Source: an uncultured Candidatus Saccharibacteria bacterium
Lineage (GTDB): Bacteria; Patescibacteriota; Minisyncoccia; Minisyncoccales; Staskawiczbacteraceae
NCBI GenBank assembly: GCA_964397155.1
Contig: CAYNHB010000003.1
Location: forward strand, 1 to 42,927
Direction of reading: 5' to 3'
Length of the DNA: 42,927 nucleotides
Made by a program: the position numbers and the translations under genes. Every line of letters begins with the position of its first letter. The first letter of the stretch is position 1. The notes under the pieces were generated by a model. That model searched no databases and had not been told where the DNA came from. It worked only from the letters and a program-made list of their open reading frames with translations. This document shows positions 763-42,927 of this stretch, piece after piece.

Positions 763-882
763 CGGGCTCGCGTTGCTCCGATGGTAGGGTTCCGAGCGTG
801 AGCTGGAATCCCGGTAATCGCAAGGTCTATGTCAACTGGTACAGTCCCGACAACTCCAATGGCAACATCCGTTCCCGTTCCG
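763..882 (+). repeat. DGR1 template repeat (TR1)
   Basis: AAC/AAT-rich intergenic copy of VR1 upstream of the RT; diverges from VR right after CGTTCCCGTTCCG (GAA vs GTT, IMH*/IMH-like boundary). Confidence 0.93.
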
Positions 883-930
883 AAGTATCCGCATAAAAAG
901 GAGCATAAGCTCCTTTTGTGTTTCAAATTT

Positions 931-1991
931 ATGTTTAAAAACAAAAATATCAAACTGTCTGGGGGGGGGCTTAAAAGTTATAATTTATTTGATAAAATTA
1001 TCTCGTCAAAAAATTTATTTGTGGCATGGGCTGATTTTAAGGAGGGCAAAAGATGGAAGCCGGATGTTCTACAATTTGAGAAAAGTTTAAGACACAACAT
1101 TTTTACGCTTTGCAACGATTTAAAATATAAAAAATATAAACATTCAGAATACTTTTCGTTTTATATTAAAGACCCAAAATTAAGGCATATTCATAAGGCA
1201 TGTGTGAGGGACAGAGTTTTGCATCACGCCGTATTTCGTATTTTATATTCTATTTTTGATAAGGCGTTTATATTTGATTCGTATTCATGTCGCCTAGGCA
1301 AAGGGACTCATCGGGCGGTAAATCGGCTGAATGAATTTGCGAAAAAGGTTGGCAAAAACAATACAAAAAACTGCCATATTCTAAAATGCGATGTTAGAAA
1401 ATTTTTTGATTCAATTAGCCATAATGTTTTAATAAATTTAATCAAGAAAAAAATCAGAGATGAGGACACGGTTTGGCTGATAAATGAAATAATAGAAAGC
1501 TACTTTGTCGCAGAAAATAAAGGGATTCCATTGGGTAATATTACAAGTCAGCTTTTTGCCAATATTTACCTTAACGAACTTGATAAATTTGTTAAGCATA
1601 AATTAAAAGTTAGATATTACATCAGATATTGCGATGATTTCGTCATTCTGAGCGACAATACGGAATATTTACAAAATCTAATTTCGCGAACGGGAAGTTT
1701 TATTGAAAATAATTTGAAACTGTCTTTGCATCCTCACAAATCCATAATAAGAAAATACGGGGAGGGGGTTGATTTTTTAGGATACATCAGTTTCCCGAAC
1801 TTTATAATTTTAAGATTGAGAACTCAAAAAGAATGTTCAGAAATATCAAAAGAAAAATAGATCTTCTTAGGCTCGGAAAAGTAACAAAAAAATCCTTTGA
1901 CCAAACTATAAAATCTTATTTCGGGGTTTTGAAGCATTGCAATTCATATAAACTGAAGAGAGCTGTTTTGAGATTATTGGATAGGTTATGA
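931..1991 (+). pseudogene. DGR reverse transcriptase RT1, frameshifted near the C-terminus (A5 run 1826-1830)
   Basis: Motifs KDPKLRHI, DRVLHHA, KCDVRKFFDSI, GIPLGNITSQLFANIYL, YCDDF, DFLGY. ORF stops at 1860, but the shifted frame continues RMFRNIKRK...SYFGVLKHCNSYKL to TGA 1989-1991, matching the RT2 C-terminus. Confidence 0.88.
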
Positions 1992-23039: not shown

Positions 23040-23055
23040 GTCCCGTCAAAATAAT

Positions 23056-25224: not shown

Positions 25225-25230
25225 TCACTC

Positions 25231-25260: not shown

Positions 25261-25265
25261 CTTAC

Positions 25266-25970
25266 ATGCTCATCGCTGGTATTCAAAAAACAACTTTAAT
25301 TGATTTTCCCGGCAAATTAGCTTGCACTGTTTTTTTAGCTGTATGCAATTTCAGGTGCCCTTGGTGTTATAGTAGGGAGCTTGTTTTGCCTTTGGAAATT
25401 GCAAAACAGCCCAGAATATCAGAAAAAGAATTTTTTGATTTTTTAAGGCAAAGGCAGGGTCAGCTTGAAGGTGTGGTTGTTTGCGGGGGAGAACCCACAG
25501 TAAACAAGGGTTTACTCCAATTTATTCAAAAGATAAAAGATTTAAGTTATGCAGTTAAGCTTGATACAAATGGCTCAAACCCTAAAATGCTAAAAAGTTT
25601 AGCCGAACATAATTTGATTGATTATGTTGCTATGGACATAAAATCTTCGCCTGATAGTGAAAATTATAAAAAAATTATGAGAGAGGGAGTAACTATGGAT
25701 AATATAAAAGATAGTGTGAAATTTTTGAAAAAGGGCCTGGTTGATTTTGAATTTAGAACAACAGTTGTTCCTGACGTGCACAAAAAACAAGATTTTATTG
25801 AAATAGCAAAATGGATAGGCGGTGAAAATGTTAAATATTATTTACAGAATTTTGTGCCCCAAAAAACAATTGACCCTATTTTTGAAAAAGTAAAACCATA
25901 TCCTGATGTATGGTTGAAAGAAGTTGCAGAAAGAATATCTCCGTATTTCAAAGAATGCAAAGTAAGGTAA
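25266..25970 (+). CDS. nrdG: Anaerobic RNR activating radical SAM enzyme
   Basis: CNFRCPWC, GGEPT, KLDTNGS, YVAMDIK, EFRTT. Confidence 0.93.
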   Translation: MLIAGIQKTTLIDFPGKLACTVFLAVCNFRCPWCYSRELVLPLEIAKQPRISEKEFFDFLRQRQGQLEGVVVCGGEPTVNKGLLQFIQKIKDLSYAVKLDTNGSNPKMLKSLAEHNLIDYVAMDIKSSPDSENYKKIMREGVTMDNIKDSVKFLKKGLVDFEFRTTVVPDVHKKQDFIEIAKWIGGENVKYYLQNFVPQKTIDPIFEKVKPYPDVWLKEVAERISPYFKECKVR

Positions 25971-25972
25971 TT

Positions 25973-27454: not shown

Positions 27455-27503
27455 GATAATCAGTATTTTAAAAATTTTAAAATTCAGGTTATAATAATAA
27501 AAT

Positions 27504-28787: not shown

Positions 28788-29802
28788 ATTTTTAAAAACA
28801 GCCATTATTTTCATAGTAGCAGTTGTTATTTTAGGTTTGTCTGTTTTTTCTTACTATTTTGTTGGCTCGGTTCCTGTCCAAGAAGATATAATTTGGGGTG
28901 TTGATTTTTCCCAAATGCAAGCAGAGTCGCTTGGTCTTAATTGGGAAGAAGTTTATTGGGATATTATAAATGATTTGGGGGCAAAAAATATAAAATTGCA
29001 CACTCAGTGGGATTGGGTTGAAGGCAGGAGGGATGACTATTATTTTTCAGACATTGATTGGCAGATAAGCCAAGCGGAAAAATATGGAGTTAATATAATA
29101 TATGTAGTGGGTATGAAAAGCGGAAGGTGGCCTGAATGCCACGTTCCTGTTTGGGCAGATGGTTTAACAAAACAAGAACAGCAAGAAGAGATTTTAGAGT
29201 ATATTAAAGAGGTTGTTTTAAGATATAAAGATAGTAAAGCTATTACTTATTGGCAGGTTGAAAACGAACCGTTTTTTAGGTTTGGCGAATGTCCTCCGTG
29301 GTATTATGAAAGTGCTGACTTTTTAGAACAAGAAGTTGCTTTAGTAAAATCACTTGATCCGTCAAGGCAAATTATTATTTCTGATTCTGGGGAAGGTTCT
29401 ATGTGGTTTGGCGCCGCTAAGATCGGAGACATCGTGGGAACAACAATGTATAGAGAAGCATGGGCTCGTGTATCAGATAGATTTGGGTTTTACATCCGTT
29501 ATCTTTTATCCCCTGTGTTTTATTCAAGAAAGGCCTTGCTTATAAAAGAAATATTCGGAAAAGAAGTGATGGTAATAGAACTTCAGGCAGAGCCTTGGGC
29601 CTCAAAACCTTTTTATGATGTACCGATAGATGAGCAGGAGAAAACAATGAACTTGCAAAAATTTAAAGATAACGTGGAGTATGCAAAACAAACCGGATTT
29701 GACAAGTTTTATTTTTGGGGGGTAGAATGGTGGCACTGGATGAAAACACAGAAAGGAAAGCCAGAAATTTGGCAGGAGGCAAAAACGCTCTTTGGCAGTT
29801 AA
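28780..29802 (+). CDS. Membrane-anchored clan GH-A glycoside hydrolase
   Basis: WDWVE, WQVENEP acid/base, IELQAEPW nucleophile. Confidence 0.75.
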   Translation: MNKFLKTAIIFIVAVVILGLSVFSYYFVGSVPVQEDIIWGVDFSQMQAESLGLNWEEVYWDIINDLGAKNIKLHTQWDWVEGRRDDYYFSDIDWQISQAEKYGVNIIYVVGMKSGRWPECHVPVWADGLTKQEQQEEILEYIKEVVLRYKDSKAITYWQVENEPFFRFGECPPWYYESADFLEQEVALVKSLDPSRQIIISDSGEGSMWFGAAKIGDIVGTTMYREAWARVSDRFGFYIRYLLSPVFYSRKALLIKEIFGKEVMVIELQAEPWASKPFYDVPIDEQEKTMNLQKFKDNVEYAKQTGFDKFYFWGVEWWHWMKTQKGKPEIWQEAKTLFGS

Positions 29803-29819
29803 TCTTTAAAATTTAAAAT

Positions 29820-30074
29820 ATGATTAAAAAATTAATAAAAAATAAATATATAAATGCAGTTTTGTTGCTGATGCTGTTTTCTGCGATAGCGCATATGGTG
29901 ATTTTGTTTTTTATAGCGATATGGCAGGGCGATTTATATTTTTTGAATTATTTTAACATATTAAGCATAAGCTACTTTATCCCTAATTTTTTAAATTCTT
30001 TTTGGGGGAATATCGCCTCTTTTGTTTTTGTTTCATTTTTGTATTTCGTAATCTTAAAATTTTTAGAAGAATAA
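29820..30074 (+). CDS. Small membrane protein
   Basis: Hydrophobic 84-aa ORF within the operon. Confidence 0.7.
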   Translation: MIKKLIKNKYINAVLLLMLFSAIAHMVILFFIAIWQGDLYFLNYFNILSISYFIPNFLNSFWGNIASFVFVSFLYFVILKFLEE

Positions 30075-30078
30075 AAAT

Positions 30079-30795
30079 ATGCTTTCAATTATTATTCCAA
30101 CCTTAAATGAAGAAAAATATCTCCCTCTTCTTTTAGAGTCCATTAAAAAACAGGATTTTTTAGATTATGAAATCATTGTGGCAGATGCCGGTTCGAAAGA
30201 TAAAACTCTTGAAATAGCAAAGCAATACGGATGCTTAATTGTTAGGGGCGGATTGCTACCAGCTGGAAGAAATAGGGGTGCTGAGGCAGCAAAAGGCAAT
30301 ATTTTTTTGTTTTTGGACGCAGACGTTATTTTGTCAGAGCATTTTCTAAAAAAATCGGTAGAGGGGTTCAAAAACCGAGGCCTGGGCATTGCGGGATTTC
30401 CGCTTATTCCGTTAAGTAAAAAAAAGATGGATAATTTTTTTCATAATGTTTTTAATATATGGACAGAATTGACTCAAAAAATATCGCCTCATGCAGCATC
30501 TACAATTATGTCTGCAAAAAAAGTGCACAACGCTATCGGAGGATTTGACGAGGAAATTGTATTTATAGAAGATTATCCTTACTCTAGAGCAGCTGCTAAA
30601 GTTTCAAAATACGGAATTATAAAAGAACCAGTTTTTGTTTCTATAAGAAGATATGAAAAAGACGGAAGACTTAAAACATATATCAAATATGCTTTGGGCG
30701 AACTGCACACAGTTTTTTTAGGGCCTGTAAAATCAGATATTTTCAAATATAAATTTGGACATTATAATAGTGATAATGACAAAGAAAGCAAGTGA
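30079..30795 (+). CDS. Family 2 glycosyltransferase
   Basis: SIIIPTLNEE, VADAGSKD, RNRGA, FLDAD, GGFDE, ED. Confidence 0.92.
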   Translation: MLSIIIPTLNEEKYLPLLLESIKKQDFLDYEIIVADAGSKDKTLEIAKQYGCLIVRGGLLPAGRNRGAEAAKGNIFLFLDADVILSEHFLKKSVEGFKNRGLGIAGFPLIPLSKKKMDNFFHNVFNIWTELTQKISPHAASTIMSAKKVHNAIGGFDEEIVFIEDYPYSRAAAKVSKYGIIKEPVFVSIRRYEKDGRLKTYIKYALGELHTVFLGPVKSDIFKYKFGHYNSDNDKESK

Positions 30796-30829
30796 AATAA
30801 ATTAATTTTAAGAGCGTAATAATATTATT

Positions 30830-32134
30830 ATGTACGAATTACCAAAATTTGATTTTAAGAAAATAAAATTTTCCAAAAATTCAGTTGTGTTAAGAATTAT
30901 AATTTTGATTATTGCCGGATCCGCCATTGGGTTTTCTGTATTTTTTGTTTCTGTTATTTATTTTCCAGTTCAGATGCAGGGATTGGTTGAATATTTTAAG
31001 ATTCCCGATTTAGTTTTACCTGAATTCGGAGCATTAAAAACACGAGATATCGCCGAGGATAAAAAACAAGAATATGCTTCTGTTATTTCTTATGAGCAGG
31101 CGATAATTGGTGCGGTAAAATCATCCTCTCCGTCTGTGGTGAGCATAGTTATTTCAAAAAATGTGCCGATTTATGAGGAAGAATGGGTAAATCCTTTTGG
31201 CGATTTAGGACCTGGTTTTAACATTCAAATTCCTCAATATGTGCAAAAAGGAACAGAGCTTCAAGAGGTGGGAGCGGGGTCTGGCTTTATTGTTTCGGCA
31301 GACGGACTTGTTTTAACCAATAAGCACGTTGTTTTAGACAGTGATGCAGAATATACTATTTTTACAAACGACGGGCAAAAATATTCTGCTAAAGTTTTAG
31401 CAAAAGATCCAGCTCAAGATTTAGCGGTTTTAAAAATTCAATTTGATGGAGGAAATTTTCAGCCAGCAACCTTGGGAGATTCTGACAGTATACAAATCGG
31501 CCAAACAGCAATTGCGATAGGAAACGCTTTGGGAGAATTTAGCAATACTGTTTCTGTTGGGGTGGTTTCTGGGCTCCAAAGAACAGTTTCAGCCTCCGAT
31601 AAATCAGGAGGATTTTCAGAAACCCTTCAAGGCATTATTCAAACAGATGCTGCTATTAACTCAGGAAATTCCGGAGGACCGCTATTAAACCTAAAGGGCG
31701 AAGTCATAGGCATTAATACAGCAATGGCAGAGGGGGCCCAGAATATTGGATTTGCGATACCTATTAATATGGCAAAAAGGGATATTAGCCAAGTTATGCA
31801 AACTGGTAAAATAATTTATCCTTTTTTAGGCATACGTTATATTTCTGTTGATAACCAAGTAAAAGAAAAGTATAGTTTGCTTGTTGATTATGGAGCATTG
31901 ATTTTTAAAGGACCTAACGGGGAGTCGGCTGTGATGGCTGATTCAGTGGCAAAAGAAGCCGGCATCAAAGAGGGTGATATTATTTTAGAACTCAATGGAG
32001 AAAAGATAACATCAGGCAATTCGCTTTCAAATATAATTTTAAAGTATAATCCTGGGAATCATGTGACCCTAAAAATTTTGAGAGACGGCAATGAGCAAAA
32101 CATTAATGTTGTTTTAGGCGAGAGAAGCGAATAA
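30830..32134 (+). CDS. htrA: HtrA/DegP-family serine protease with PDZ domain
   Basis: GSGFIV, TNKHV, DLAVLK, QTDAAINSGNSGGPL, C-terminal PDZ. Confidence 0.93.
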   Translation: MYELPKFDFKKIKFSKNSVVLRIIILIIAGSAIGFSVFFVSVIYFPVQMQGLVEYFKIPDLVLPEFGALKTRDIAEDKKQEYASVISYEQAIIGAVKSSSPSVVSIVISKNVPIYEEEWVNPFGDLGPGFNIQIPQYVQKGTELQEVGAGSGFIVSADGLVLTNKHVVLDSDAEYTIFTNDGQKYSAKVLAKDPAQDLAVLKIQFDGGNFQPATLGDSDSIQIGQTAIAIGNALGEFSNTVSVGVVSGLQRTVSASDKSGGFSETLQGIIQTDAAINSGNSGGPLLNLKGEVIGINTAMAEGAQNIGFAIPINMAKRDISQVMQTGKIIYPFLGIRYISVDNQVKEKYSLLVDYGALIFKGPNGESAVMADSVAKEAGIKEGDIILELNGEKITSGNSLSNIILKYNPGNHVTLKILRDGNEQNINVVLGERSE

Positions 32135-32137
32135 GTG

Positions 32138-32165
32138 TTGACACAAAGTTTTGTTTTGCTATACT
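32138..32165 (+). promoter_or_regulatory. Sigma70-type promoter of the attenuated unit
   Basis: TTGACA-16 bp-TATACT with extended TG. Confidence 0.7.
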
Positions 32166-32173
32166 AAAATCGT

Positions 32174-32263
32174 ATGAATCAAACCAATTTAAACAACTCA
32201 TATTTCTTTTTCTTCTTTTTTAGCTTTTTTGAGAAAGGAGTTGGTTTGAGTGTTCTAAAGTAG
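32174..32263 (+). CDS. Phe-rich attenuator leader peptide (PheL-like, 29 aa)
   Basis: MNQTNLNNSYFFFFFFSFFEKGVGLSVLK*, with 8 Phe and 1 Tyr in 10 codons; not in the ORF track. Confidence 0.82.
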   Translation: MNQTNLNNSYFFFFFFSFFEKGVGLSVLK

Positions 32264-32327
32264 GGAAATAAAAAAAAGAAAATTCAAACGAGCTCCTTTC
32301 TACGGAAGAAAGGAGCTCTTGTTTTTT
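32232..32327 (+). promoter_or_regulatory. Attenuator antiterminator/terminator
   Basis: Terminator GAGCTCCTTTCT 32290-32301 / AGAAAGGAGCTC 32307-32318 plus T run; alternative pairing 32232-32250 with 32283-32301. Confidence 0.85.
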
Positions 32328-32351
32328 ACCTCACATCAAGGGAGCGGTACG

Positions 32352-32579
32352 ATGATCATTAGGATGAAACCTGATGCGACTGGCGACTGTTGGGAAGCGG
32401 TGTTTGCAAGGATTGGGGCTTTAGGTCGCGCGTACAGAGTGGTAGGAATGAGGAGCATTGCGGTTGAGGAAAGCAAAAGAGGCGAGATAGAAGAGGGTCA
32501 TTTCCGAGGCCAGCCAGGAGTACAATCGGCTTGCTCTATGAAGACGGAGCTCCCGAGAGACCAAAGCTCTGCTGCCTGA
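32352..32579 (+). CDS. Small protein resembling the N-terminal ferredoxin-like/ACT regulatory domain of type I-beta DAHP synthase
   Basis: RBS AAGGGAG; MIIRMKPDAT...V...I..LG.........IAV........F...PGV pattern, recognised by eye. Confidence 0.6.
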   Translation: MIIRMKPDATGDCWEAVFARIGALGRAYRVVGMRSIAVEESKRGEIEEGHFRGQPGVQSACSMKTELPRDQSSAA

Positions 32580-32612
32580 AGTTCGGGCGAAAGGGCGGGG
32601 CGTTGCCTTGCC

Positions 32613-32645
32613 AGCGGGTTGGAGACCTTCCAATCCGCTTTTTTG
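32613..32645 (+). terminator. Intrinsic terminator
   Basis: AGCGGGTTGGA-gacct-TCCAATCCGCT followed by a T run. Confidence 0.75.
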
Positions 32646-32708
32646 TGTTTGTTGATTTTTTATGGATTTTGAGTTATAATAAAAATATATAAATAAAAAA
32701 ATATTATC

Positions 32709-35414
32709 ATGATGGCAGGAGGAAATTTCACAAATAAAGCGCAGGATGCCTTAATGCAGGCTCAGCAATTAGCCCAGGAAAAAGGTCAGCAGCAAATAGA
32801 TGCCCTGCACCTGCTTTTTGCTTTGCTTTCTCAAGAAGGCAGCATTATAGTTACTATTTTACAAAAATTAGGCATTGAAAAAGAAGACCTTTTAAAGAAA
32901 GTTGAATCTCAGATTACAAAAATTCCTACAATTTTAACCCCGCAGTCATTTGGGCAATTTTATCTTACCCAAGACATGGCAAAGGTTTTAGACAGGGCAA
33001 GGCAGGAAGCGGGTAAAATGAATGATGAATTCATTTCTGTTGAACATTTATTTTTAGCTTTGCTTGAAGTAAAATCAGGGGCTAAAACTGTATTAGAAAA
33101 ATTAAGCTTTTTATCTCCCGGAAATTCAAACACTTTAAAGTCATTAAAACTTGACTATGAAGCAGTAGTAAAAGTTTTGTCGCAAATAAGGGGCGGACAA
33201 AGAATTACAGACCCGGAGCCAGAGTCAAAATATCAAGTAATAGAAAAATACACAAGAAATCTTACCGACTTGGCAATGGCAGGAAAAATTGACCCGATTG
33301 TAGGCAGGGACAATGAAATAAGAAGGTTAATGCAGATAATTTCTAGGAGGACAAAAAATAATCCTGTGTTGATTGGCGAGGCGGGCGTAGGAAAAACTGC
33401 TATTGTTGAAGGGTTTGCCCAAAGGATTGCCAGGGGTAATGTTCCCGAATTTTTGAAAGACAAAGAAATAATTTCATTGGATCTTGGCGCTATAATAGCT
33501 GGAACAAAATACAGGGGAGAATTTGAGACAAGAATCAAAGCTCTTTTAAAAGAGTTGGCGAGATCAACAGGAAAATATATTTTGTTTATTGACGAACTTC
33601 ATACATTAGTTGGAGCCGGAGCAGCTGAAGGCGCTATTGACGCTTCAAATCTATTAAAGCCAGCATTAGCCCGCGGGGAGCTAAGGGCTATTGGAGCTAC
33701 AACCTTAAAAGAATACCAAAAATACATTGAAAGAGATCCTGCTTTAGAAAGAAGATTTCAGCCCATTTATGTTCAAGAGCCATCCGTTGAAGATACCATA
33801 GCCATTTTAAGAGGCATCAAAGAAAAATACGAGGTTCATCATGGTGTAAAAATAAAGGACTCTGCCATAAAAGCTGCCACCGAATTGGCAAGCCGTTATA
33901 TTTCAGACAGGTTTTTGCCTGACAAAGCGGTTGATTTGATGGACGAGGCGGCATCTGCCTTGCGTTTGGAGATTGAATCAGACCCGCAGGAGCTGGAAAA
34001 ATATCAGGAGGAAATTACAAAGTTGGAAATTGAAAAACAGGCGTTAAAAAAGGAAAATGGTTCAGATAAAAGAGTAAAAGCTATTTTAAGAGCATTGGCT
34101 GATTTAAACGAAAAAGCAAGAGCGTTGAGATTAAAGTTGGGTGCAGAAAAAGAACTTATCGGGAAAATAAAGAGCATCAGGGAAAAGTTAGATGGTCTTT
34201 CTTACCAAACAGAACTTGCCCAGCGGGAAGCGGATTTGGAAAAGGTGGCTGAAATAAAATACGGGAAAATACCAGAACTTCTAAAAGAGTTGTCAGCAAT
34301 AGAACAAAAATTGGTGAAAGTGCAAAAAAGCCATCGACTTTTGAAAGAAGAAGTCACGGAAGAAGAGGTTGCTAAAGTTGTTTCAAAGTGGACTGGCATT
34401 CCGGTAACCCGTTTGATCACAGAAGAAGCAAAAAAATTGGAAACAATGGAATATACTCTTAATAAAAGAGTAATCGGTCAGCAGGAGGCCATTTCAGCCA
34501 TTTCCAGAGCAATAAGAAGGGCAAGGGCAGGAATTTCAGAGGAAAATAAGCCATTGGGTTCATTCTTATTTTTAGGTCCAACGGGGGTGGGAAAAACAGA
34601 AACAGCCAGAGCTCTTGCAGAGTTTTTATTTGATGATGAAAGGGCGCTGGTTCGGCTTGATATGTCAGAATATATGGAACGCCATACAGTTTCAAAGATT
34701 ATCGGTTCTCCGCCGGGATACGTCGGATACGAGGAGGCGGGTCAGCTTACAGAAAAGGTAAGGCGCAGGCCTTATTCTGTGATTTTATTGGATGAAGTTG
34801 AAAAAGCCCATCCCGAAGTGTTTAATATACTTTTACAGATTTTTGAAGACGGCCGATTAACCGATTCAAAAGGAAGGATGGTTTCTTTTAAGAATTCAAT
34901 TATAATAATGACTTCAAACCTTGGGTCTGACTATATAAATAAAATGTCTTCAATAGGATTCGCCAGCATAGAGGATTTAGAACAAAGAGAATCAATGAGA
35001 GAAAAGGTTTTTAATTCTCTTAAAGAATCTTTTAGGCCCGAGTTTCTTAACAGAATTGATGAAATTGTCATATTTAATTATCTCAAAAAAGACCAGATTA
35101 GAAAAATTGTTGATTTAGAACTTCAAAAAGTTGAAAAACGCCTGGCTTCAAGAGAAATTAAAATTGAAATTTCAGAAAAAGCCAGAAACTTTTTAGTAAA
35201 AGAGGGTTTTGATCCAAACTTGGGGGCAAGGCCACTAAAGAGAGTGATTCAACGCCTTATACTTGATCCGCTTTCAATTAAAATAGTTACCAATGAAATT
35301 GCCGAAGGAAGCAGGGTTTTGATTGACGAGCAATCAGGAAAAATAGTGTTTGAAACACCAAAAATTTTGCCAAGAATGAAAAATACAAGAAAACTAGCAA
35401 AAGCCAGAAAATAA
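32709..35414 (+). CDS. clpB: ATP-dependent chaperone ClpB
   Basis: Two AAA+ modules ([16 protein letters not shown]), long coiled-coil middle domain, [16 protein letters not shown]. Confidence 0.93.
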
Positions 35415-35461
35415 CACCAAAACAGTATGTTTTTAAAACACCCACACAAATGGGTGTTTTG

Positions 35462-35490
35462 TTTTAACGTCTCACCGCGGTGAGTTGTTG
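35462..35490. repeat. Left palindromic direct repeat flanking the DGR2 cassette
   Basis: TTTTAACGTCTCACCGCGGTGAGttGTTG; 26/29 match to 38163-38191. Confidence 0.8.
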
Positions 35491-35516
35491 ACAGAAATAA
35501 ATTATAATAGTATAAT
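35488..35516 (+). promoter_or_regulatory. Consensus sigma70 promoter of the DGR2 target gene
   Basis: TTGACA-17 bp-TATAAT. Confidence 0.8.
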
Positions 35517-35592
35517 TATGGTATCAATAGCAACTGTGCTGTTGGTCTACTCACTAGCAATGGGTAGAAAGTACTTTTTTGGGAGGATTGCC

Positions 35593-36291
35593 ATGAGTAT
35601 TGGCGAAACAGAAGGCTTGACGCGGTTGTTGAAATTGCTAACAAGAGCTCTGACTTACGTTCTTGAAGGCAAGAGAGATTTGGGTCCTCTTCTTCAGTTT
35701 CTGCAGGGGTTCGTGTTCGGAAGTGATCTCGACTCTGAAGTCTGGGCCGGGGTCTACAGACAGTTTGGCATGGAAGCTGAGTATAGGGAGTTCATGGAGG
35801 AGCACGAAGTTGAGGAAGCGGAGGACCGCTGGACCATGCCCGTGCTCACTGGCGTAACTTGTAACAAGGTAGTTGCAGTGTTACGCGGGCTAGGCGTGGA
35901 AGTCTTCACATATGTTGACGACTTGGATGCGGAAGTCGCTGATAACGACCGCGACCCGGCCAATGGCAGCTATTTCGTTGGTTTTACCAAGAACGCAGAA
36001 GCCGACGAAGAAAACAAGAGAAAGTCTGCCAATCAGCTCAAGGATGAGAGCCACCAAGGCATCACCCTGCTGGAGCGTTTGCTTCTCGAGTTGGGATATT
36101 CTCTGGCAACGGCAAAACATCTCGACATCAAGAATGTGACGCTCTGCTCGGGTTCGCGCTATCGGGGCGGTGATGTCCCGTACGTCTACTGGAGTCCTGT
36201 CGACCGCAAGGTCTATGTCTACTGGTACAACCTCGATAACTCCAGCGGCAGTCTGCGTTCCCGCTCCGTTCGGTTTCTTTCGCTCGTGTAG
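35593..36291 (+). CDS. DGR2 target protein (232 aa), C-terminal variable region, probably CLec-like fold
   Basis: RBS GGGAGG before ATG 35593; contains VR2; paralog of 3-530; no obvious signal peptide. Confidence 0.9.
   Translation: MSIGETEGLTRLLKLLTRALTYVLEGKRDLGPLLQFLQGFVFGSDLDSEVWAGVYRQFGMEAEYREFMEEHEVEEAEDRWTMPVLTGVTCNKVVAVLRGLGVEVFTYVDDLDAEVADNDRDPANGSYFVGFTKNAEADEENKRKSANQLKDESHQGITLLERLLLELGYSLATAKHLDIKNVTLCSGSRYRGGDVPYVYWSPVDRKVYVYWYNLDNSSGSLRSRSVRFLSLV
36149..36268 (+). repeat. DGR2 variable repeat (VR2)
   Basis: 120 bp; by hand 12 mismatches to TR2, all opposite TR adenines. Confidence 0.95.
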
Positions 36292-36400
36292 TCCCGCCAA
36301 AGCGGGACGTAGCGAGCGATTATATTCTGCCTGCGCAGGTCGCCAACGGCGACTGAAGCAGGCATCGGGCCTCCCGCACGAGCTTGCAGGAGGCCATTTT
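36280..36400. other. Two post-VR nested hairpins plus terminator
   Basis: TCGCTCG-tgta-GTCCCGC-caaa-GCGGGAC-gtag-CGAGCGA 36280-36319; TGCCTGC-gcag-GTCGCC-aac-GGCGAC-tgaa-GCAGGCA 36328-36364; GGCCTCC...GGAGGCC-ATTTTT 36368-36401. Confidence 0.72.
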
Positions 36401-36416
36401 TATTATATAATATAGT

Positions 36417-36571
36417 TGTGGCAAAGGGATTTGCCACACAAGAAACTGCTTGCATGGTTTTTACGAGCGAGAGTTTTAAAATTCAGGGCTCGGAAGACAC
36501 CCCCGTTTAGCGGGGCTAACCCAGATAATTTTGCTTTAAAGATTATCGGTGATATGGATAAAATCAGGCAA
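36417..36571 (+). ncRNA. Candidate structured DGR RNA leader 5' of TR2
   Basis: TATAAT 36406-36411; TGTGGCAAA-GGGA-TTTGCCACA; closing helix 36450-36461/36560-36571 around stems 36464-36492, 36501-36515 and 36524-36547. Confidence 0.75.
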
Positions 36572-36576
36572 TAAAA

Positions 36577-36696
36577 CGGGTTCGCGCTATCAGGACGGTA
36601 ATGTCCCGAACGTCAACTGGAATCCTGACAACCGCAAGGTCTATGTCAACTGGTACAACCTCGATAACTCCAACGACAATCTGCGTTCCCGCTCCG
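36577..36696 (+). repeat. DGR2 template repeat (TR2)
   Basis: AAC-rich intergenic copy of VR2 upstream of the RT. Confidence 0.95.
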
Positions 36697-36748
36697 AAGT
36701 CTCTGCATAACGAGAGCCAACGGCTCTCTTTGTGTTTATAAATAAAAT

Positions 36749-37808
36749 ATGAAAATTAAAAATGCAAAACTGAACGGGGGGGGGTATTAAAAGAAACAAT
36801 TTATTTGAAAAGATAACATCTTTAGAGAATTTATATTTATCATGGAAAGAATTTAAAAAAGGAAAAACTAAAAAGAAAGATGTTCGAAAGTTCAAGAAAA
36901 ATCTAAAAAACAACATTTTAAAATTACATCAAGAATTAAAGATAAAGAGGTATCAACATTCAGAATACTTTTCATTTTATATCAAAGACCCAAAGTTACG
37001 ACATATCCATAAAGCAACAGTTAAAGACAGGGTTTTGCATCACGCAGTTTTTAGGATTTTATACCCAATATTTGATAAAACATTTATTTTTGATTCTTAT
37101 TCTTGTAGAATTAACAAAGGAATTCATAGAGCGATAAACAGATTAAACAAATTTTTTAGAAAAGCCAGTCAGAATAACACAAAAATATGTTATGTTTTAA
37201 AATGCGATATTAAGAAATTTTTTGATTCAATAGATCACGCTATTTTAATGGATTTGGTTAAACAGAAAATAAAAGATAAAAACGCAATCTGGCTGATAAA
37301 CAAAATAATCGAAAGCTACTCAATCAAGACCGGAAAGGGTATTCCTTTGGGTAATATAACCAGCCAGCTATTTGCAAATATTTATTTAAACGAGCTCGAC
37401 CAATTTATTAAGCATAAATTAAAAGTTAAGTATTATATAAGGTATTGTGATGATTTTGTAATATTGGATAAAGACAAATTTTATTTGCAGAAATTAATTT
37501 CACTTATAAATAATTTTTTAGCAAACGAATTAAAATTAGTTCTGCATCCAAATAAAGTAATGATCAGAAAATATCGACAGGGAATTGATTTTTTAGGATA
37601 TGTTTGTTTTCCTTACGATAGGATTTTGAGACTCAAGACAAAAAAGAGGATGTTTAGAAAAATAAAAAGAAAATTAGTAATTTTGAATGTCGGCGAAATA
37701 GCAAAAGAACATTTTAATCACATGATGCAGTCGTACTATGGAGTTTTAAGGCATTGTAATTCGCATAAACTGAATAAAATTTTGAATAAATTTATTTTAG
37801 TAATATAA
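36749..37808 (+). pseudogene. DGR reverse transcriptase RT2, frameshifted in G9 tract 36776-36784 (candidate phase-OFF state)
   Basis: ATG 36749 reads MKIKNAKLNGGGY*; removing one G gives KLNGGGIKRNNLFEKI..., colinear with RT1, through GNITSQLFAN and YCDDF to the stop at 37808. Confidence 0.9.
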
Positions 37809-37815
37809 TAGAAGC

Positions 37816-38160
37816 ATGAGCCATGTTTTGGTTTTTATCTTAGGCATATTAATAGGTGCTGGGGGCGTGCGGTTTTATATGCAGGAAAGGCTGGACAGAG
37901 ATAAAAGTTCGTATAAAAATGAAAATTACAAAAAAGTTTTAGAAGTGCTTGATAAGCAGGCTGCAGGTAAAGAAAAAAACAATAAAAAAGTTTTGGAATT
38001 TTTAGAGAACAAAGATAAAGTTACAAATAATGATATAGAAAAATTGTTAGGGATTTCAAATGCCACAGCAGAAAGATATTTAGACGAACTGGAGAAGAAG
38101 GGTGTTTTAAGACAAATTGGAAAAACTGGCCATTACACATATTACGTCAAAAATTTTTAA
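37816..38160 (+). CDS. Membrane-anchored winged-helix (DeoR-like HTH) protein
   Basis: N-terminal TM; VTNNDIEKLLGISNATAERYLDELEKKG; paralog of 6734-7051. Confidence 0.8.
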   Translation: MSHVLVFILGILIGAGGVRFYMQERLDRDKSSYKNENYKKVLEVLDKQAAGKEKNNKKVLEFLENKDKVTNNDIEKLLGISNATAERYLDELEKKGVLRQIGKTGHYTYYVKNF

Positions 38161-38162
38161 TA

Positions 38163-38191
38163 TTTTAACGTCTCATCGCGGTGAGGCGTTG
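38163..38191. repeat. Right palindromic direct repeat flanking the DGR2 cassette
   Basis: TTTTAACGTCTCATCGCGGTGAGgcGTTG. Confidence 0.8.
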
Positions 38192-38205
38192 GAATTTTAA
38201 TTAAA

Positions 38206-38979
38206 ATGAAGAATTGTAACCCGATTTTTATAGACAATAAATCAAAAGTGGGTGTTTTAATGCTTCATGGTTTTAGCGGGAGCCCAAAACAGTTTACAGA
38301 GCTCGCAGATTATCTTTCTGCAAGAGGCCTTACGGTTTATGTTCCGCTTATTGCCGGGCATGGCACAACTCCTGAGGATTTTATGAACAGCAATCCTGAT
38401 GATTGGAAGGATTCGGTTAAAAAAGCTTATTTAAAAATAAAAGAAACTTCCGAAAAAATCATAATAATAGGGAATTCCTTTGGGTCAAATTTGGGTTTTT
38501 GGCTGGCAGAAAAGTTTAATAACGAACCGGCAGCTATAATTTCTTTGGGAGCCCCAATTTTTTTAAGGTGGCAAAAGTTTTTAAAATTCCGGCTGGCCAC
38601 TTATGGCAGGTTTGTAAAATATTATAAAAAACCATCAAGAATGTATAAAATTGATTATACTGATATGAAAGATAAAGTTTCTTATCCGGTGATTCCTATA
38701 AAAAGTTTTAAAGAATTTCTTGATTTTATAGAAGAGGAAACTATGCCGAATTTGCATAAAGTAAATGCCCCGATTTTAATAGCCAATGCCAACCACGACA
38801 CAGTAATTCATCCAAGAAGCGCAGCATATATATTTTCTAATATAGGATCTCAAATAAAAGAAGTTTTCTGGTTCAACTCAGACCAGCACGGAGTGGCTGA
38901 AGCGGGATGCGAGGGTTTGTTTTCGAAAATACACAGCTTCATAAGAGAGATAATGCAACCTAAAATCAATAATGTATAA
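38206..38979 (+). CDS. Alpha/beta-hydrolase carboxylesterase
   Basis: LHGFSG, AGHG, nucleophile GNSFG, catalytic D (HDTVI) and H (DQHG). Confidence 0.88.
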   Translation: MKNCNPIFIDNKSKVGVLMLHGFSGSPKQFTELADYLSARGLTVYVPLIAGHGTTPEDFMNSNPDDWKDSVKKAYLKIKETSEKIIIIGNSFGSNLGFWLAEKFNNEPAAIISLGAPIFLRWQKFLKFRLATYGRFVKYYKKPSRMYKIDYTDMKDKVSYPVIPIKSFKEFLDFIEEETMPNLHKVNAPILIANANHDTVIHPRSAAYIFSNIGSQIKEVFWFNSDQHGVAEAGCEGLFSKIHSFIREIMQPKINNV

Positions 38980-40711
38980 ATCAATACCAGAGGTTTTTTT
39001 TGAAACAGCAAAAAAATACGGCAAAAAGCCGGCCTTGCTTTATAAAAAAGAAGGTGTTTATTTTCCTATTACTTATACAGAACTTGAAAAGAAAGTAAAA
39101 ATATTTGCATCGGGCCTTCAAAAACTTGGAATAGAAAAAGGAGATAACATTGCAATTCTATCTGAAAACAGACCCGAATGGGTGATATCTGATTTAGCAA
39201 TAATGGCTTCGGGCGGAGTGGTTGTGCCCTTACACACCACATTCAGCGCAAAAGCAATAGCAAATGTTTTGACTCATTCAAAATCAAAAATTTTAATCGT
39301 TTCAAACAGCGACCTTCTAAACAAAGTTTTAATCGGGCAAAAGCACTTAAAATACCTTAAAAAAGTTATTTTTTTAGATAAGCTCACTTCTTCCCAAAAA
39401 GAAATTTTAACAAATAAGGTAATCGGTTGGAATGCAATATTAAAACAAAAAAATGAATCTGAATACGAAGATATATTTTTAGATCCAGACGATCCCTGCA
39501 GTATAATTTATACTTCCGGCACAACAGGTAAGCCAAAAGGAGTTGTGCTTTCTCATATGAATTTTTTAAGTAACACAGAGGCCATAAACGAAGTTATTCC
39601 AGTAAAAGAAAGTGATGTATTTTTATCATTTTTACCCTTATCTCATGTTTTAGAAAGGCAGGCAGGATATTATATGCCGCTTTGTTACGGAGCCACTATT
39701 GCTTATGCAGAAGGCATAAAACAGCTTCCGCAAAACTTAAAAGAAGTAAAGCCCACAATACTGATTTCTGTTCCTAGGATTTTTGAAAAATTCCACGATG
39801 CTATATGGGACAAGGTCAATTCTTCTTCAAAATTACAAAAAAAGCTTTTTTTATGGGCGTTGAGACAAAAAAAAGGTTGTGCCCTTTATCGCCTTGCTGA
39901 CATTTTAGTGTTTAAAAAGGTAAGGCAGCAGCTGGGGGGAAAACTGCGTATTTCTGTTTCAGGGGGCGCTTCCTTAAATGAAAAAGTTGCCAGGTTTTTT
40001 TCAAAAATGGGAATTTTAATACTGGATGGCTACGGCTTAACCGAAACCTCTCCTGTGGTTTCTGTTAACAGAGAAAACGATTTAAAATTCGGCACAGTGG
40101 GCAAGCTTATTCCAGGAGTAAAAATTAAGATAAAAGAAGACACAAAAGAAGTTTTGGTAAGAGGCCCGAATGTTTTTAAAGAATATTTTAAAAACAAAAA
40201 AGAAACAAAGCAAAGCTTTGATAAAGAAGGGTGGTTTCAAACAGGCGACATGGGTTTTTACGACAAGCAAGGTTTTCTGACTATTATTGGCAGGGGCAAG
40301 GAAATGATTGTAACATCTGGAGGCAAAAACGTATGGCCAGAAAAAATAGAAAATCTGCTTAATGATGACAAGTTTGTTTCACAGTCAATGGCATTGGGAA
40401 ACAAAAGAAAATTTATTTCAGCTTTGATAGTTCCTGATTGGCAGGAAGTTGAAATTTATATGAAGGAAAACAATCTGCCTTTACAAGAACACCAAAATCT
40501 TATCAAAAAACCGCATATTTTAGAAATTTTTCAAAAACGCTTAGATGAAAAGATAAATCCGAATTTAGACGACTTTGAAAAAATCAAAAAATTTAAACTG
40601 TTGCCTCAAGAATTCTCTCAGGAGCAAGATGAGCTTACTCCAACCCTTAAGTTACGAAGGCACATTGTTGAAAAACACTACAAAAAAGCCATAGAATCAA
40701 TGTACAAATAA
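38972..40711 (+). CDS. Long-chain fatty-acid--CoA ligase (AMP-dependent synthetase)
   Basis: YTSGTTGKPKG, LPLSHVLE, GYGLTETSP, TGD, ELTPTLKLRR. Confidence 0.92.
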   Translation: MYKSIPEVFFETAKKYGKKPALLYKKEGVYFPITYTELEKKVKIFASGLQKLGIEKGDNIAILSENRPEWVISDLAIMASGGVVVPLHTTFSAKAIANVLTHSKSKILIVSNSDLLNKVLIGQKHLKYLKKVIFLDKLTSSQKEILTNKVIGWNAILKQKNESEYEDIFLDPDDPCSIIYTSGTTGKPKGVVLSHMNFLSNTEAINEVIPVKESDVFLSFLPLSHVLERQAGYYMPLCYGATIAYAEGIKQLPQNLKEVKPTILISVPRIFEKFHDAIWDKVNSSSKLQKKLFLWALRQKKGCALYRLADILVFKKVRQQLGGKLRISVSGGASLNEKVARFFSKMGILILDGYGLTETSPVVSVNRENDLKFGTVGKLIPGVKIKIKEDTKEVLVRGPNVFKEYFKNKKETKQSFDKEGWFQTGDMGFYDKQGFLTIIGRGKEMIVTSGGKNVWPEKIENLLNDDKFVSQSMALGNKRKFISALIVPDWQEVEIYMKENNLPLQEHQNLIKKPHILEIFQKRLDEKINPNLDDFEKIKKFKLLPQEFSQEQDELTPTLKLRRHIVEKHYKKAIESMYK

Positions 40712-40712
40712 T

Positions 40713-40952
40713 ATGGATGGGAGGAGGAGGGAAAACATTAAAATAGGGGCGGAGGTGGATATAGTTTTGAAAAAAGACCAGCCAACAGGGAAATTGACTC
40801 ATGGCAGGGTCGCTCAAATTTTGACTGGTAAAAAAATCCACCCGCGCGGCATTAAGGTGCGTTTGGAAAACGGCCAGGTTGGCAGAGTGCAAAAAGTTTA
40901 CCCTAAATTTCCAAAAATAAACGGCATTGAATACCAAGAGGGCCTAACATGA
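40713..40952 (+). CDS. YwbE-family protein
   Basis: VLKKDQPTGKLT.G.V..ILT....HPRGIKVRL..GQVGRV. Confidence 0.88.
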   Translation: MDGRRRENIKIGAEVDIVLKKDQPTGKLTHGRVAQILTGKKIHPRGIKVRLENGQVGRVQKVYPKFPKINGIEYQEGLT

Positions 40953-40993
40953 AATTTGACATTTTTATAGATAATTTGATATAATAATTTATT

Positions 40994-41212
40994 ATGAAAA
41001 AAATAAACTTTAAAAATGTGGTCTGGAAAGAAGGCAAGTATTATGTTGCTCAGTGTTTAAATGTTGATGTTTCTAGCTTTGGTAGAACTAAAAAAGAGGC
41101 CTTAAAAAATTTAGATGAAGCATTAGAATTATACCTTGAGGATAAAAAAGCGTTTAAGTTACCCGAGGTCAACAAACCAGAGTTGATTGATTTGTCGTTA
41201 AAGCATGCTTAA
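40994..41212 (+). CDS. hicB: HicB-family antitoxin (short, no DNA-binding domain)
   Basis: YVAQC...DVSSFGRTKKEALKNLDEALELYLE; promoter TTGACA-18-TATAAT at 40956-40985. Confidence 0.85.
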   Translation: MKKINFKNVVWKEGKYYVAQCLNVDVSSFGRTKKEALKNLDEALELYLEDKKAFKLPEVNKPELIDLSLKHA

Positions 41213-41215
41213 CCT

Positions 41216-41437
41216 ATGCCAAAACTTTATTCGTCAAGTCATATTGCAAAAGTCCTTCAAAGAAAGGGCTTTGTTTATGTGTCGCAAAAAGGAAGTCATG
41301 TGAAATTTCGCAAGCACCTTAAAAATTCTGTATTGACGGTTATAGTCCCAGCAAACAGAAAAGAAATTCCTTATGGGACTTTTAGGTCTATTTTAAGGCA
41401 GTCAAAATTAGAAGAAAAAGATTTTAAAATTAAATAA
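41216..41437 (+). CDS. hicA: HicA-family toxin
   Basis: GF..VSQKGSHVKF, VIVP, EIPYGTFRSILRQ. Confidence 0.88.
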   Translation: MPKLYSSSHIAKVLQRKGFVYVSQKGSHVKFRKHLKNSVLTVIVPANRKEIPYGTFRSILRQSKLEEKDFKIK

Positions 41438-41444
41438 AATATAT

Positions 41445-41624
41445 ATGAACGAAAATAAGCAATACACGCCAAAAGGAAAATGTCCTTTTTGCAAAGGAGA
41501 AGTTACTTTAGAAATGGTAAAAAGAGAGAAAAAGGGCATTGGCATATTTAAACAAGAGATAATGTACATGTGCCCCCACTGCCAAGCTGTTTTAGGCTTT
41601 AGCAGAGGCAAATTTACAACATAA
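41445..41624 (+). CDS. 59-aa zinc-ribbon protein (not in the ORF track)
   Basis: MNENKQYTPKGKCPFCKGEVTLEMVKREKKGIGIFKQEIMYMCPHCQAVLGFSRGKFTT*, with two CxxC pairs. Confidence 0.75.
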   Translation: MNENKQYTPKGKCPFCKGEVTLEMVKREKKGIGIFKQEIMYMCPHCQAVLGFSRGKFTT

Positions 41625-41679
41625 GGATTGACACGGGGCTATAATGTGCTAATATGTAATATACATTAAAAATTATAAA

Positions 41680-41921
41680 ATCTTTGATTCAGGTCCCTGG
41701 CAAAAGCTGGGGGTTGGGCCCGATGAGATGGCTTGTGCGTCAGTGCAGGCTCGGCTTCCTCCGTAACCATAGGATAATCGCTGAATCCCGCCTAGGCGGG
41801 AGGAGTCGATGAAAGAGCCCTATGCCGAATTATTCGGCCGGGAATCGGGGTGGTACCGCGAGAATACTTCTCGTCCCTGTTGCGTAGCTTTGTCTGCGCC
41901 ATAGAGACGAGAAGTTTTTTA
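41680..41921 (+). promoter_or_regulatory. T-box riboswitch leader (5' boundary approximate)
   Basis: T-box AATCGGGGTGGTACCGCG 41843-41860; antiterminator partner CGTCCCT; terminator ACTTCTCGTC 41866-41875 / GACGAGAAGT 41906-41915 plus T run; promoter TTGACA at 41628. Confidence 0.85.
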
Positions 41922-41965
41922 TTGCTTTTTGAACAAACACGCACATTAACAAAGGGGTTGCTGGC

Positions 41966-42166
41966 ATGGAGTATGAACAGACATGTCCGAAATGCGGGGT
42001 CAAACTTCCGCCGTCCAGCGAGGAAGGAAAACACAATTTTTGCCCCTCAAGCGAATTTATACGAGGCAAGATCGTGGAGATTTGTATGGAGTGCAAAATA
42101 CAGGAAGTGGTGGCAATATGGAGCGGACGTAGGCCTGGCAAGACAAGTGGGGGATTCTTAGGATAA
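41966..42166 (+). CDS. 66-aa Cys-rich hypothetical protein downstream of the T-box
   Basis: RBS-like AAGGGG; CPKC, HNFC, CMEC; followed by a terminator. Confidence 0.6.
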   Translation: MEYEQTCPKCGVKLPPSSEEGKHNFCPSSEFIRGKIVEICMECKIQEVVAIWSGRRPGKTSGGFLG

Positions 42167-42192
42167 GGGGCTTTTGCAAAAGCCCCTTTTTA
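42165..42192 (+). terminator. Intrinsic terminator
   Basis: AAGGGGCTTTT-gc-AAAAGCCCCTT followed by a T run. Confidence 0.75.
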
Positions 42193-42416
42193 TAATTCTG
42201 GTTTTTTTGGGGGCTCAATACGCACGGCGGGTGGCGTATTGGGGCAGGAGGCGTTTTCTGCCGTGGCGGTGGTTTTTGTTTCTCGTTTTGTGATATAATG
42301 AGTAAAAAAGCAAAGCGGGAAAAATGAAAAAATTAGACGAAAAATTTTGGGAAAAATAATATAAATTTAAAAATCAAATATCAAAAATTAAAATTACAGT
42401 TTAAATTTGAAAAACC

Positions 42417-42725
42417 ATGGATATAAAAAAAATGCAAAAAATTGTAGATGATTGGATAAAAACCAATACAAAGGGCTACTGGAAGCCAAACAATATAATG
42501 TTAAGATTGATGGAAGAGGTTGGCGAATTAGCAAGAGCAATAAATCATAGATTTGGAGAGAAGCGAAAAAAACAAAAAGAAGCAGATAAAGAAATCAGCT
42601 CTGAATTAGCGGACGTTCTTTATGATATAATCTGCATAGCCAATTCTCTAAATATAGATTTAGAAGATGCATTCAAGCACACTATAGAAAAATATGAAAA
42701 ACGAGATAAATATAGACATCGGTAA
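42417..42725 (+). CDS. MazG-like nucleotide pyrophosphohydrolase (YpjD-like)
   Basis: RLMEEVGELAR, ELADVL, IANSLNIDL, KYEKRD. Confidence 0.9.
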   Translation: MDIKKMQKIVDDWIKTNTKGYWKPNNIMLRLMEEVGELARAINHRFGEKRKKQKEADKEISSELADVLYDIICIANSLNIDLEDAFKHTIEKYEKRDKYRHR

Positions 42726-42844
42726 CAATTACAAAAATTTAAAAAATTTTGGGAGAAATATTTTAAGGGCAAGGAATAATGAAAGTAACCGTCGTACAAG
42801 ATAAAAATTTAGAGAAATATTAAAAAATTGACTACGCTTTGTCG

Positions 42845-42875
42845 CAAGCCCCGCCCTAAAGGGCGGGGTGGTGGC
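42845..42875. repeat. GC-rich palindrome resembling an IS200/IS605-family end
   Basis: CAAG-CCCCGCCC-taaa-GGGCGGGG-TGGTGGC. Confidence 0.45.
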
Positions 42876-42927
42876 GCTGTTCGGAAACTCTCAAATATGG
42901 TAGAATAAGGTAACATGAGAAGAACAG

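Follow-up and report, generated by a model that had tools for sequence, protein, structure and literature searches.

Can a reverse transcriptase (RT) gene be expressed when its only usable start codon is out of register with the rest of its reading frame? This question is raised by RT2, one of two RT genes of diversity-generating retroelements (DGRs) in the window, i.e., the whole of contig C3 (42,927 bp) from an uncultured Candidatus Saccharibacteria bacterium, whose assembly comprises 760,925 bp in 42 contigs with 37% GC and is 93% complete. Two DGR cassettes of identical order lie in the window, each composed of a target gene with a variable repeat (VR), a structured spacer of ~300 nt, a template repeat (TR), a stem-loop and an RT gene (RT1 and RT2), and a run of nine G residues (G9) is found shortly after the start codon of both RT genes. 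The G9 of RT2 is one copy of a conserved poly-G element found at the 5′ boundary of RT genes in one DGR lineage, and we see an even chance that this element gates RT2 by slippage, mainly replication slippage.

First of all, the initial annotation had placed G9 runs near both RT starts in AT-rich DNA, and the coordinates and frames proved correct (Table 1), with a GC content of 31% in RT1 and 26% in RT2. In RT2, the leader frame ends at TAA 36788–36790, so that translation in the G9 state stops after 13 codons. With one base fewer, the leader and body frames are fused into an RT of 352 aa, in agreement with the ~350 aa that had been predicted; the surplus base may be a G of the run or T 36785. 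The claim that no in-frame ATG rescues the N-terminus also holds, as the body frame contains no ATG, GTG or TTG upstream of TTG 37035, where the gene call of 257 aa starts. That is to say, the G9 of RT2 is a slippage-prone repeat within a reading frame, nine codons past the only usable ATG, and so the run gates translation of the RT. RT1, which had been described as in frame, is so at the G run; further on, a 1-nt frameshift at the A5 run 1826–1830 breaks the gene, and frame 0 ends at 1860 (product 309 aa), with the conserved C-terminus of ~45 residues continuing in a different frame until 1991. A downstream break of this kind occurs in almost no homolog.

The run itself could be doubted, since homopolymers are prone to sequencing and assembly errors, and the real length might be G8 (or G11), as the initial annotation had considered for G8. 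Besides this general point, the separate frameshift of RT1 likewise lies in a homopolymer, and the contig of one relative (L023) starts with a run of ~45 C exactly at the run position. This C start resembles an artefact of assembly seeded at the run position, and calls for caution on run lengths near contig ends. However, six lake-water sequencing runs contain this DNA, and four of them were compared with positions 22928–42927 as run-wise Logan contigs. Among the pieces listed, the RT2 run is spanned by those of X1 (record 7, 4429 nt, 35561–39989) and X2 (record 13, 966 nt, 36712–37677), both with G9 and no gap. The single indel listed over 20 kb in the four runs is at 41887, in X2. Therefore, G9 predominates at RT2 in no fewer than two other assemblies, one of which may be the window's own source sample. 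Moreover, 37 of the 48 distinct homologous loci described below, from many assemblies, are out of frame too. An error in the run length is thus extremely improbable.

The occurrence of two G9 runs in the window is by itself weak evidence for non-randomness (0.39 expected; 8 of 100 shuffles reach two). Over the genome (761 kb), there are just three G9 runs and no C9 run, and all three are at DGR RT genes: RT1, RT2 and an RT gene on contig C32, whose run shares 20 identical nt around it with that of RT1.

Compared with the X1 contig, the window shows 17 differences over 4429 nt, all of them within VR2 (36167–36248), and the two are otherwise identical; the X3 contig, the other one covering VR2, has the same 17 changes relative to the window. 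All 17 differences fall on adenines of TR2, which has A at 30 of its 120 positions. Thus adenine mutagenesis has altered VR2 between populations that show no other difference in this region, and DGR2 diversified very recently. The earlier view that adenine-only TR2/VR2 differences fit a recently active element is borne out, as all 12 mismatches between TR2 and VR2 in the window are also at TR adenines. G9 stands at RT2 in both the window and X1, i.e., on either side of the difference in VR2. For the first cassette, 17 of 20 TR1/VR1 mismatches are at TR adenines, and the three others, together with the A5 frameshift of RT1, suggest that this cassette is decaying.

Conservation of the run and frame states among homologs

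Of 79 genomes of the same family, 54 contain RT2 homologs, frequently more than one copy. In total, 151 loci were read, consisting of the two of the window, 69 from family genomes and 80 from metagenome contigs (the best 80 of 574 relatives); 142 were assessable, the upstream sequence of the other nine being too short. A G run of at least 6 nt lies just 5′ of the RT in 94 of the 142 loci and is lacking in 48. The run lengths in the 94 loci are 6 (1 locus), 7 (5), 8 (6), 9 (37), 10 (28), 11 (15) and 12 (2), and the flanks are conserved as TCT-Gn-(A/C/T)TTA(A/G)A(A/G)G. A strict form of this pattern occurs at 77 places in species-representative genomes, 21 of them within 200 nt of a same-strand RT, in records entitled Candidatus Staskawiczbacteria, Portnoybacteria, Giovannonibacteria, Parcubacteria or Patescibacteria group, as well as ‘uncultured Candidatus Saccharibacteria’ or plain ‘bacterium’. 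The run is therefore not peculiar to the two genes of the window, and is an older inherited element of the DGR lineage; the survey of homologs that the initial annotation had proposed shows varying lengths (6–12) and varying frames.

Three layouts of the run can be distinguished. In layout (a), with 41 of the 94 loci, a canonical start codon follows ~15–35 nt past the run, which is hence non-coding. Among 93 assessable loci, 69 have an open frame of at least 85 codons that begins immediately next to the run on the opposite strand. Two of these 69 (L007 and L025) are antisense-of-TR frames without the Avd motif. Eight of the reversed frames were compared with Pfam; all match bAvd (PF22296), and six of the matches reach the cut-off. 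In most relatives, the run lies in a gap of ~50 nt between a reversed bAvd gene and the RT gene, and in three larger loci VR is followed by TR, a reversed avd, the run and RT, with 21/21, 7/7 and 11/14 TR/VR mismatches at TR adenines.

In layout (b), with 53 loci (48 distinct) including RT1 and RT2, no start follows the run. On the RT tree, this layout forms essentially a single clade (43 of its 50 rows; SH-like support 87). An upstream ATG lying 18–60 nt before the run and open to it is present in 48 of 48 distinct (b) loci and in 16 of 41 (a) loci, against a share of 0.32 at random positions. At 19 of the 48 (b) loci, TR rather than avd lies upstream, as in the window, and no opposite-strand gene explains the ATG.

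Layout (c) belongs to the RT clade of the C32 type, four of whose seven loci carry the run at the RT gene's 3′ end, always in frame and with a conserved tail behind it. A further 33 loci form a fourth group with avd and RT head to head and no run. Other repeats occupy the place of the run, in the avd–RT gap, in four run-less loci, i.e., (GT)7 in three and (GA)9 in one (L030, L135, L148 and L157), and the three (GT) loci have exactly seven units each although their flanks differ. Locus class is strongly clustered on the RT tree. Poly-G as a mark of RT genes only was rejected for the wider family: among the matches listed (G001–G041, counted by hand), 30 of 69 runs of at least G9 adjoin an RT match, and none of the 20 inspected among the other 39 has an RT match, an Avd match or the flanking motif.

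The frames of the 48 distinct (b) loci are scattered. Leader ATG and RT body share a frame in 11, and the ATG is displaced by +1 in 26 and by +2 in 11. The RT body (at least 320 aa) is complete in 36 of the 37 out-of-frame loci, and in 10 of the 11 in-frame ones, the exception being RT1 of the window. A comparison of two out-of-frame loci gives a dN/dS ratio of 0.13, and one of an out-of-frame with an in-frame locus gives 0.16; for a third pair, at very small distances, the ratio is 0.56. Judged from these sequences, the out-of-frame RTs of the (b) clade are plainly not dead genes, and a correction of frame at the run would be needed. Mapped on the RT tree, the frame state requires 22 changes, against 20.1 for shuffled labels, and run length 21, against 23.5. 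Both therefore turn over faster than the RT tree resolves. Locus pairs of 88–92% identity differ in length (G10 against G9, G7 against G12).

Proposed slippage on the run and its alternatives

Homopolymeric G tracts are known to drive slipped-strand phase variation, and the following course can be proposed for the (b) clade. The RT would use the ATG ~27 nt upstream, the run would be translated as Gly3–4, and run length modulo 3 would decide whether the RT is made. In-frame templates would come from slippage on the run, with replication slippage as the main route, giving heritable and reversible ON/OFF states. A minority of cells would then make RT2 and diversify VR2, and slippage of RNA polymerase or the ribosome may add some leak. 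The anatomy of the loci, the conservation of the run, the scattered frames with intact RT bodies and the recent change of VR2 are observed; we infer that slippage is the source of the in-frame state, that it acts mainly at replication, that RT2 is the RT at work, and that diversification is on in only a subpopulation. The sequences would look alike if slippage took place in transcription or translation, or if the third DGR did the work. Replication slippage is the simplest source because the run lengths are those of contingency tracts, G9 and G10 are the commonest states, and neither MutS_V nor MutL domains were found in the genome (93% complete). It has been reported that poly-G lengths in Campylobacter jejuni, which lacks mismatch repair, are mostly G9 or G10, and that this mode is attributed to a bias to insertion at G8 and to deletion at G11 or longer (PMC8355987). 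The slippage-prone alternatives (GT)7 and (GA)9 at the place of the run in run-less relatives also support slippage. Heritable phase variation appears the most likely mechanism.

Several observations weigh against it. The window, X1 and X2 all have G9, so no variation of the RT2 run length within the population was seen, in contigs that hide minor variants, and no indel at this run is listed for any of the four sequencing runs. Run length is equal in five of six locus pairs of at least 99.75% identity, some of which are possibly duplicate filings; these five are identical over 400 nt, and one pair of 99.75% identity differs (G9 against GGT plus G8). The frame distribution of 11:26:11 is uneven (chi-square p 0.009, with loci that are not independent), which a purely random switch does not predict. 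Each of the genome's three runs measures exactly G9, and (GT) has seven units in every one of its three loci, so that a length constraint fits as well as a mutational equilibrium. The run is non-coding in 41 of 94 loci and in frame in 4 of 4 loci of the C32-like clade, and therefore its conserved role cannot be that of a frame switch. Finally, RT2 has no bAvd gene of its own, and the sole one of the assembly is in the third DGR. The phase-variable switch first suggested for these genes consequently stands in part: the run is real, lies between the only start and the body, ranges from 6 to 12 nt, and occurs in both kinds of frame with intact RTs, but length heterogeneity is absent from the contigs, near-identical loci mostly agree in length, and many runs are non-coding.

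The constancy of G9 in three assemblies while VR2 changed would also be expected if slippage were not heritable. In this case the DNA would stay G9, and stutter of RNA polymerase on the G run of 9–12 nt or ribosome slip on the GGG codons would supply a small share of in-frame product in every cell, the run setting a low RT level with no ON/OFF switch. The intact bodies of 36 of 37 out-of-frame RTs agree with this, as do the run lengths, which are similar whether the run is coding or non-coding, so that selection on the frame of the DNA is not apparent; where a run equals the RNA:DNA hybrid in length, realignment without mismatch becomes possible. However, known programmed slippage sites have a fixed frame relation and run length, here replaced by frames of 11:26:11 and lengths of 7–12, and efficient slippage of bacterial RNA polymerase is documented mainly on A or T runs. 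This explanation is accordingly rated unlikely. As regards programmed recoding, neither a fixed frame relation nor a fixed slippery sequence was found in the (b) loci, and neither frames nor lengths carry phylogenetic signal.

Other routes to the RT2 body were tried and rejected. A +1 shift of the prfB type, one codon ahead of the leader stop, fails, as the codons past the run cannot re-pair. A near-cognate start after the run was discarded, since the first codon varies (CTT, ATT, TTA, ACT) and there is no conserved candidate. A promoter-spacer role was dropped for the RT-linked run, around which no convincing −35/−10 boxes could be placed, unlike at C8:12730. At this place on contig C8 (12730–12737), which is not related to a DGR, a G8 makes up the spacer between the TTGACA and TATAAT boxes of a consensus-like promoter, ~45 nt before an ATG. 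In the relative L160, a G9 (1256–1264) lies in the equivalent promoter spacer; the layout is that of classic promoter phase variation.

Predicted RNA pairing of the run and the third DGR

In all three layouts, the run is downstream of TR on the TR strand, at a distance of ~80 nt in the layout of the window, ~400 nt with a reversed avd between and ~1.1 kb in the C32 type. This constant order allows another possibility, i.e., that the run acts as an RNA primer strand which pairs with the TR 3′ end and starts cDNA synthesis. The overlap of the run with the RT frame would then be incidental, and the RT might be produced through a non-canonical route. In minimum free energy folds of both window loci, the run pairs with the TR 3′ end, and an RNAalifold consensus of 18 TR-adjacent loci keeps seven run–TR pairs, five in 18/18 sequences and two in 17/18. 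C-to-U changes are tolerated in this pairing, and a compensatory change is impossible for a G run. According to a preprint on the Bordetella phage DGR, a duplex of Sp 47–56 with TR 117–129 primes cDNA synthesis, a stem-loop right after TR binds Avd, and the RNA wraps its own RT–Avd closely (bioRxiv 10.1101/2023.10.23.563531). The order found here, a stem-loop after TR and then the putative primer strand, would be as in the phage RNA, and the stem-loop at 36712–36728 corresponds by position, and by analogy only, to the Avd-binding one. Other TR-adjacent loci have a stem-loop at the position equivalent to 900–913, with a different sequence.

On the other side, a G run pairs with any pyrimidine stretch; the RT1 fold is no better than shuffles (z −1.5), and the helix is missing from the centroid. 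The (GT)7 and (GA)9 loci have no complementary (AC)n or (TC)n partner, and translation of the out-of-frame RT would remain unexplained, with no conserved near-cognate start after the run. A primer role with frame overlap as a side effect is accordingly distinctly unlikely. A combination in which one G run of 9–12 nt does two jobs throughout the lineage, as an RNA strand priming cDNA and as a hypermutable DNA tract with stochastic ON/OFF states, is also considered quite unlikely, if a little less so. If true, it would explain why the run is kept at three gene positions, and it would place the RT, elsewhere Avd or the avd–RT control region, under stochastic control, with which the cell hedges hypermutation. 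Being conserved downstream of TR, the run is a candidate for the priming strand of DGRs in a lineage remote from the phage model. At the level of DNA, poly-G, (GT)n and (GA)n are all prone to non-B forms, and the run between divergent genes may have a role of this kind.

A hairpin upstream of TR2, followed by an invariant GGTGA, has nine covarying pairs over 18 loci (Table 1). Its counterpart in the first cassette is at 710–745. In the 18 loci, the hairpin (columns 82–115 of alignment A1) stands 25–60 nt upstream of TR, and it is probably part of the DGR template RNA. A long-range duplex in the RT2 fold (36534–36543 with 36818–36827) was rejected, since its 5′ strand belongs to this local hairpin, which is also present in the RT1 fold. 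No Rfam family was found for 36250–36950 at E ≤ 1.

The third DGR, on contig C32, is complete, and its TR/VR pair was identified by BLAST. Its RT carries an in-frame G9 (5244–5252) at the 3′ end followed by a conserved 19-aa tail, a layout present in 3 of 6 relatives. An accessory Avd gene next to TR and RT is frequent in DGRs, though not universal. The window has no bAvd gene (PF22296); the 93%-complete assembly gives a single PF22296 match, C32:3322–3621, and the four matches to PF05635 in the assembly are all on contigs other than that of the window. Therefore, DGR2 works without Avd, borrows the Avd of C32, or is wholly served by the C32 machinery.

The last of these would mean that RT2 is permanently off or irrelevant, and that VR2 is diversified in trans. 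In favour of this, the C32 element carries the sole bAvd and its RT stays in frame across the G9; RT1 has a break, and RT2 is out of frame. RT1 and C32 also share 20 identical nt around their runs. But the C32 RT is just 34–38% identical to RT2, and the phage RNA, if it can serve as an analogy, wraps its own RT–Avd closely. Moreover, if RT2 were not used, it would be expected to decay, but its 340 codons are open in DNA of 26% GC, and 36 of 37 out-of-frame homologs are intact. Diversification of VR2 in trans is thus very unlikely, and gating of RT2 by slippage on the run is retained as the preferred reading.

Relation to known systems and features of the window

The run resembles the poly-G/C contingency loci of C. 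jejuni in its length (8–12 nt), in the AT-rich small genome without detectable mismatch repair, and in its position early in a reading frame, where length modulo 3 decides translation; the prevalence of G9 and G10 is also shared. Unlike in C. jejuni, the gated gene is a mutagenesis RT instead of a surface-structure gene, switching is predicted from sequence, and the run is also conserved at non-coding sites and at the 3′ end of another RT clade. With the prototype DGR of Bordetella phage BPP-1, the elements share adenine-only TR/VR differences, a 3′ VR, an RVT_1 RT, a post-TR stem-loop and a predicted TR duplex. The order target–avd–TR–brt of BPP-1 is replaced here by VR–TR–RT without adjacent avd, or in relatives by VR–TR–reversed avd–run–RT. 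The RT start codon is upstream of a homopolymer here, and no poly-G is described for the phage in the sections of the preprint that were consulted.

Programmed frameshift and slippage sites include the +1 site of prfB, and A runs in dnaX and insertion sequence (IS) elements. The run is like them in being a slippery homopolymer, G-rich and Shine–Dalgarno-like, between a start and an out-of-frame body, and the RT2 leader stops two codons past it; it is unlike them in having no fixed frame relation (11:26:11) and no fixed length (7–12). Homopolymer tracts also occur in promoter spacers or between divergent genes, as in Bordetella fim and Neisseria porA, and reportedly as the poly-A tract of nspA (PMC6389960). 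Here too, 41 of 94 runs are non-coding and lie mostly between divergent bAvd and RT starts, although −35/−10 boxes of a convincing kind are missing around the RT-linked run.

No report linking a homopolymer or phase variation to a DGR RT, the avd–RT gap or Patescibacteria was found in the literature searched (main texts), and neither ‘frameshift’ nor ‘homopolymer’ occurs in the main texts of two DGR surveys. The homopolymeric contingency tract is known; its placement on a targeted hypermutation engine, conserved in a lineage, is new as far as we have seen. To our knowledge, no natural protein diversifier stronger than DGRs has been described, and the ways in which cells restrain them are poorly understood. 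If it acts as proposed, a conserved slippage-prone run between RT start and body would be a simple, heritable and reversible brake on DGRs, that is, variation of the rate of variation in unculturable organisms. In practical terms, 37 of 48 RT genes of the (b) clade look frameshifted, so that gene callers are expected to truncate them, and DGR surveys which start from predicted RT proteins may miss such genes or label them dead.

The features are collected in Table 1. Both cassettes have an RT gene with a Pfam RVT_1 match (RT2 body E 1.1e-22), TR/VR pairs differing at adenines, and a VR at the 3′ end of the target gene; VR2 ends 23 nt upstream of the stop of ORF (open reading frame) 35485–36291, and VR1 lies within ORF 3–530, for which no Pfam family was found at E ≤ 0.001. 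RT1 and RT2 both contain GIPLGNITSQLFANIYLNELD, which we take to be the DGR-type (I/L)GxxxSQ motif.

Table 1. Positions of the DGR features and of a repeated hairpin element; positions refer to the window unless contig C32 is named.
Feature	Position	Strand	Evidence and remarks
3′ part of DGR1 target gene (truncated by contig start)	3..530	+	ORF; VR1 388-517
TR1, template repeat of DGR1	763..890	+	A at sites where VR1 has other bases
Stem-loop directly 3′ of TR1, then T-rich stretch	900..913	+	5-bp stem, 4-nt loop
RT1	931..1991	+	ATG 931; Pfam RVT_1 E 2.9e-24; second match 1698-1967, E 9.6e-15
G9 run of RT1	961..969	+	In frame, read Gly-Gly-Gly
DGR2 target gene	35485..36291	+	ORF; VR2 36149-36268 at its 3′ end
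Hairpin upstream of TR2, then invariant GGTGA	36524..36560 (stem 36524..36550)	+	9 covarying pairs, 18 loci
TR2, template repeat of DGR2	36577..36696	+	Pyrimidine-rich 3′ end 36688-36696, predicted to pair with the G run
Stem-loop directly 3′ of TR2	36712..36728	+	7 bp, 3-nt loop
RT2 leader frame	36749..36790	+	ATG, nine codons, G9, two codons, stop (MKIKNAKLNGGGY before the stop)
G9 run of RT2	36776..36784	+	Leader ATG one base out of register with RT body
RT2 body	36786..37808	+	340 codons open; stop 37806-37808; RVT_1
Third, complete DGR	C32:1961-5309		VR 1961-2149; bAvd 3322-3621; TR 3924-4112; RT 4135-5309
Copies of double-hairpin element	2124-2167, 4323-4366, 10345-10388, 21397-21440, 22095-22138		In the window

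Several GC-rich hairpins, e.g., at 36292–36309, are found in the 3′ flank of VR2, with an apparent terminator near 36369–36405, and VR1 is also followed by hairpins of these kinds. In addition, a GC-rich double-hairpin element of ~33 nt stands in frame within five ORFs of the window, twice in the 816-aa ORF 2036–4486. It is translated as ..SA(L/R/E/K)GG(P/S)A(S/L)G(G/W)(E/K/D).., has ~37 copies in the genome by a loose pattern, and resembles palindromic elements that insert into coding regions.

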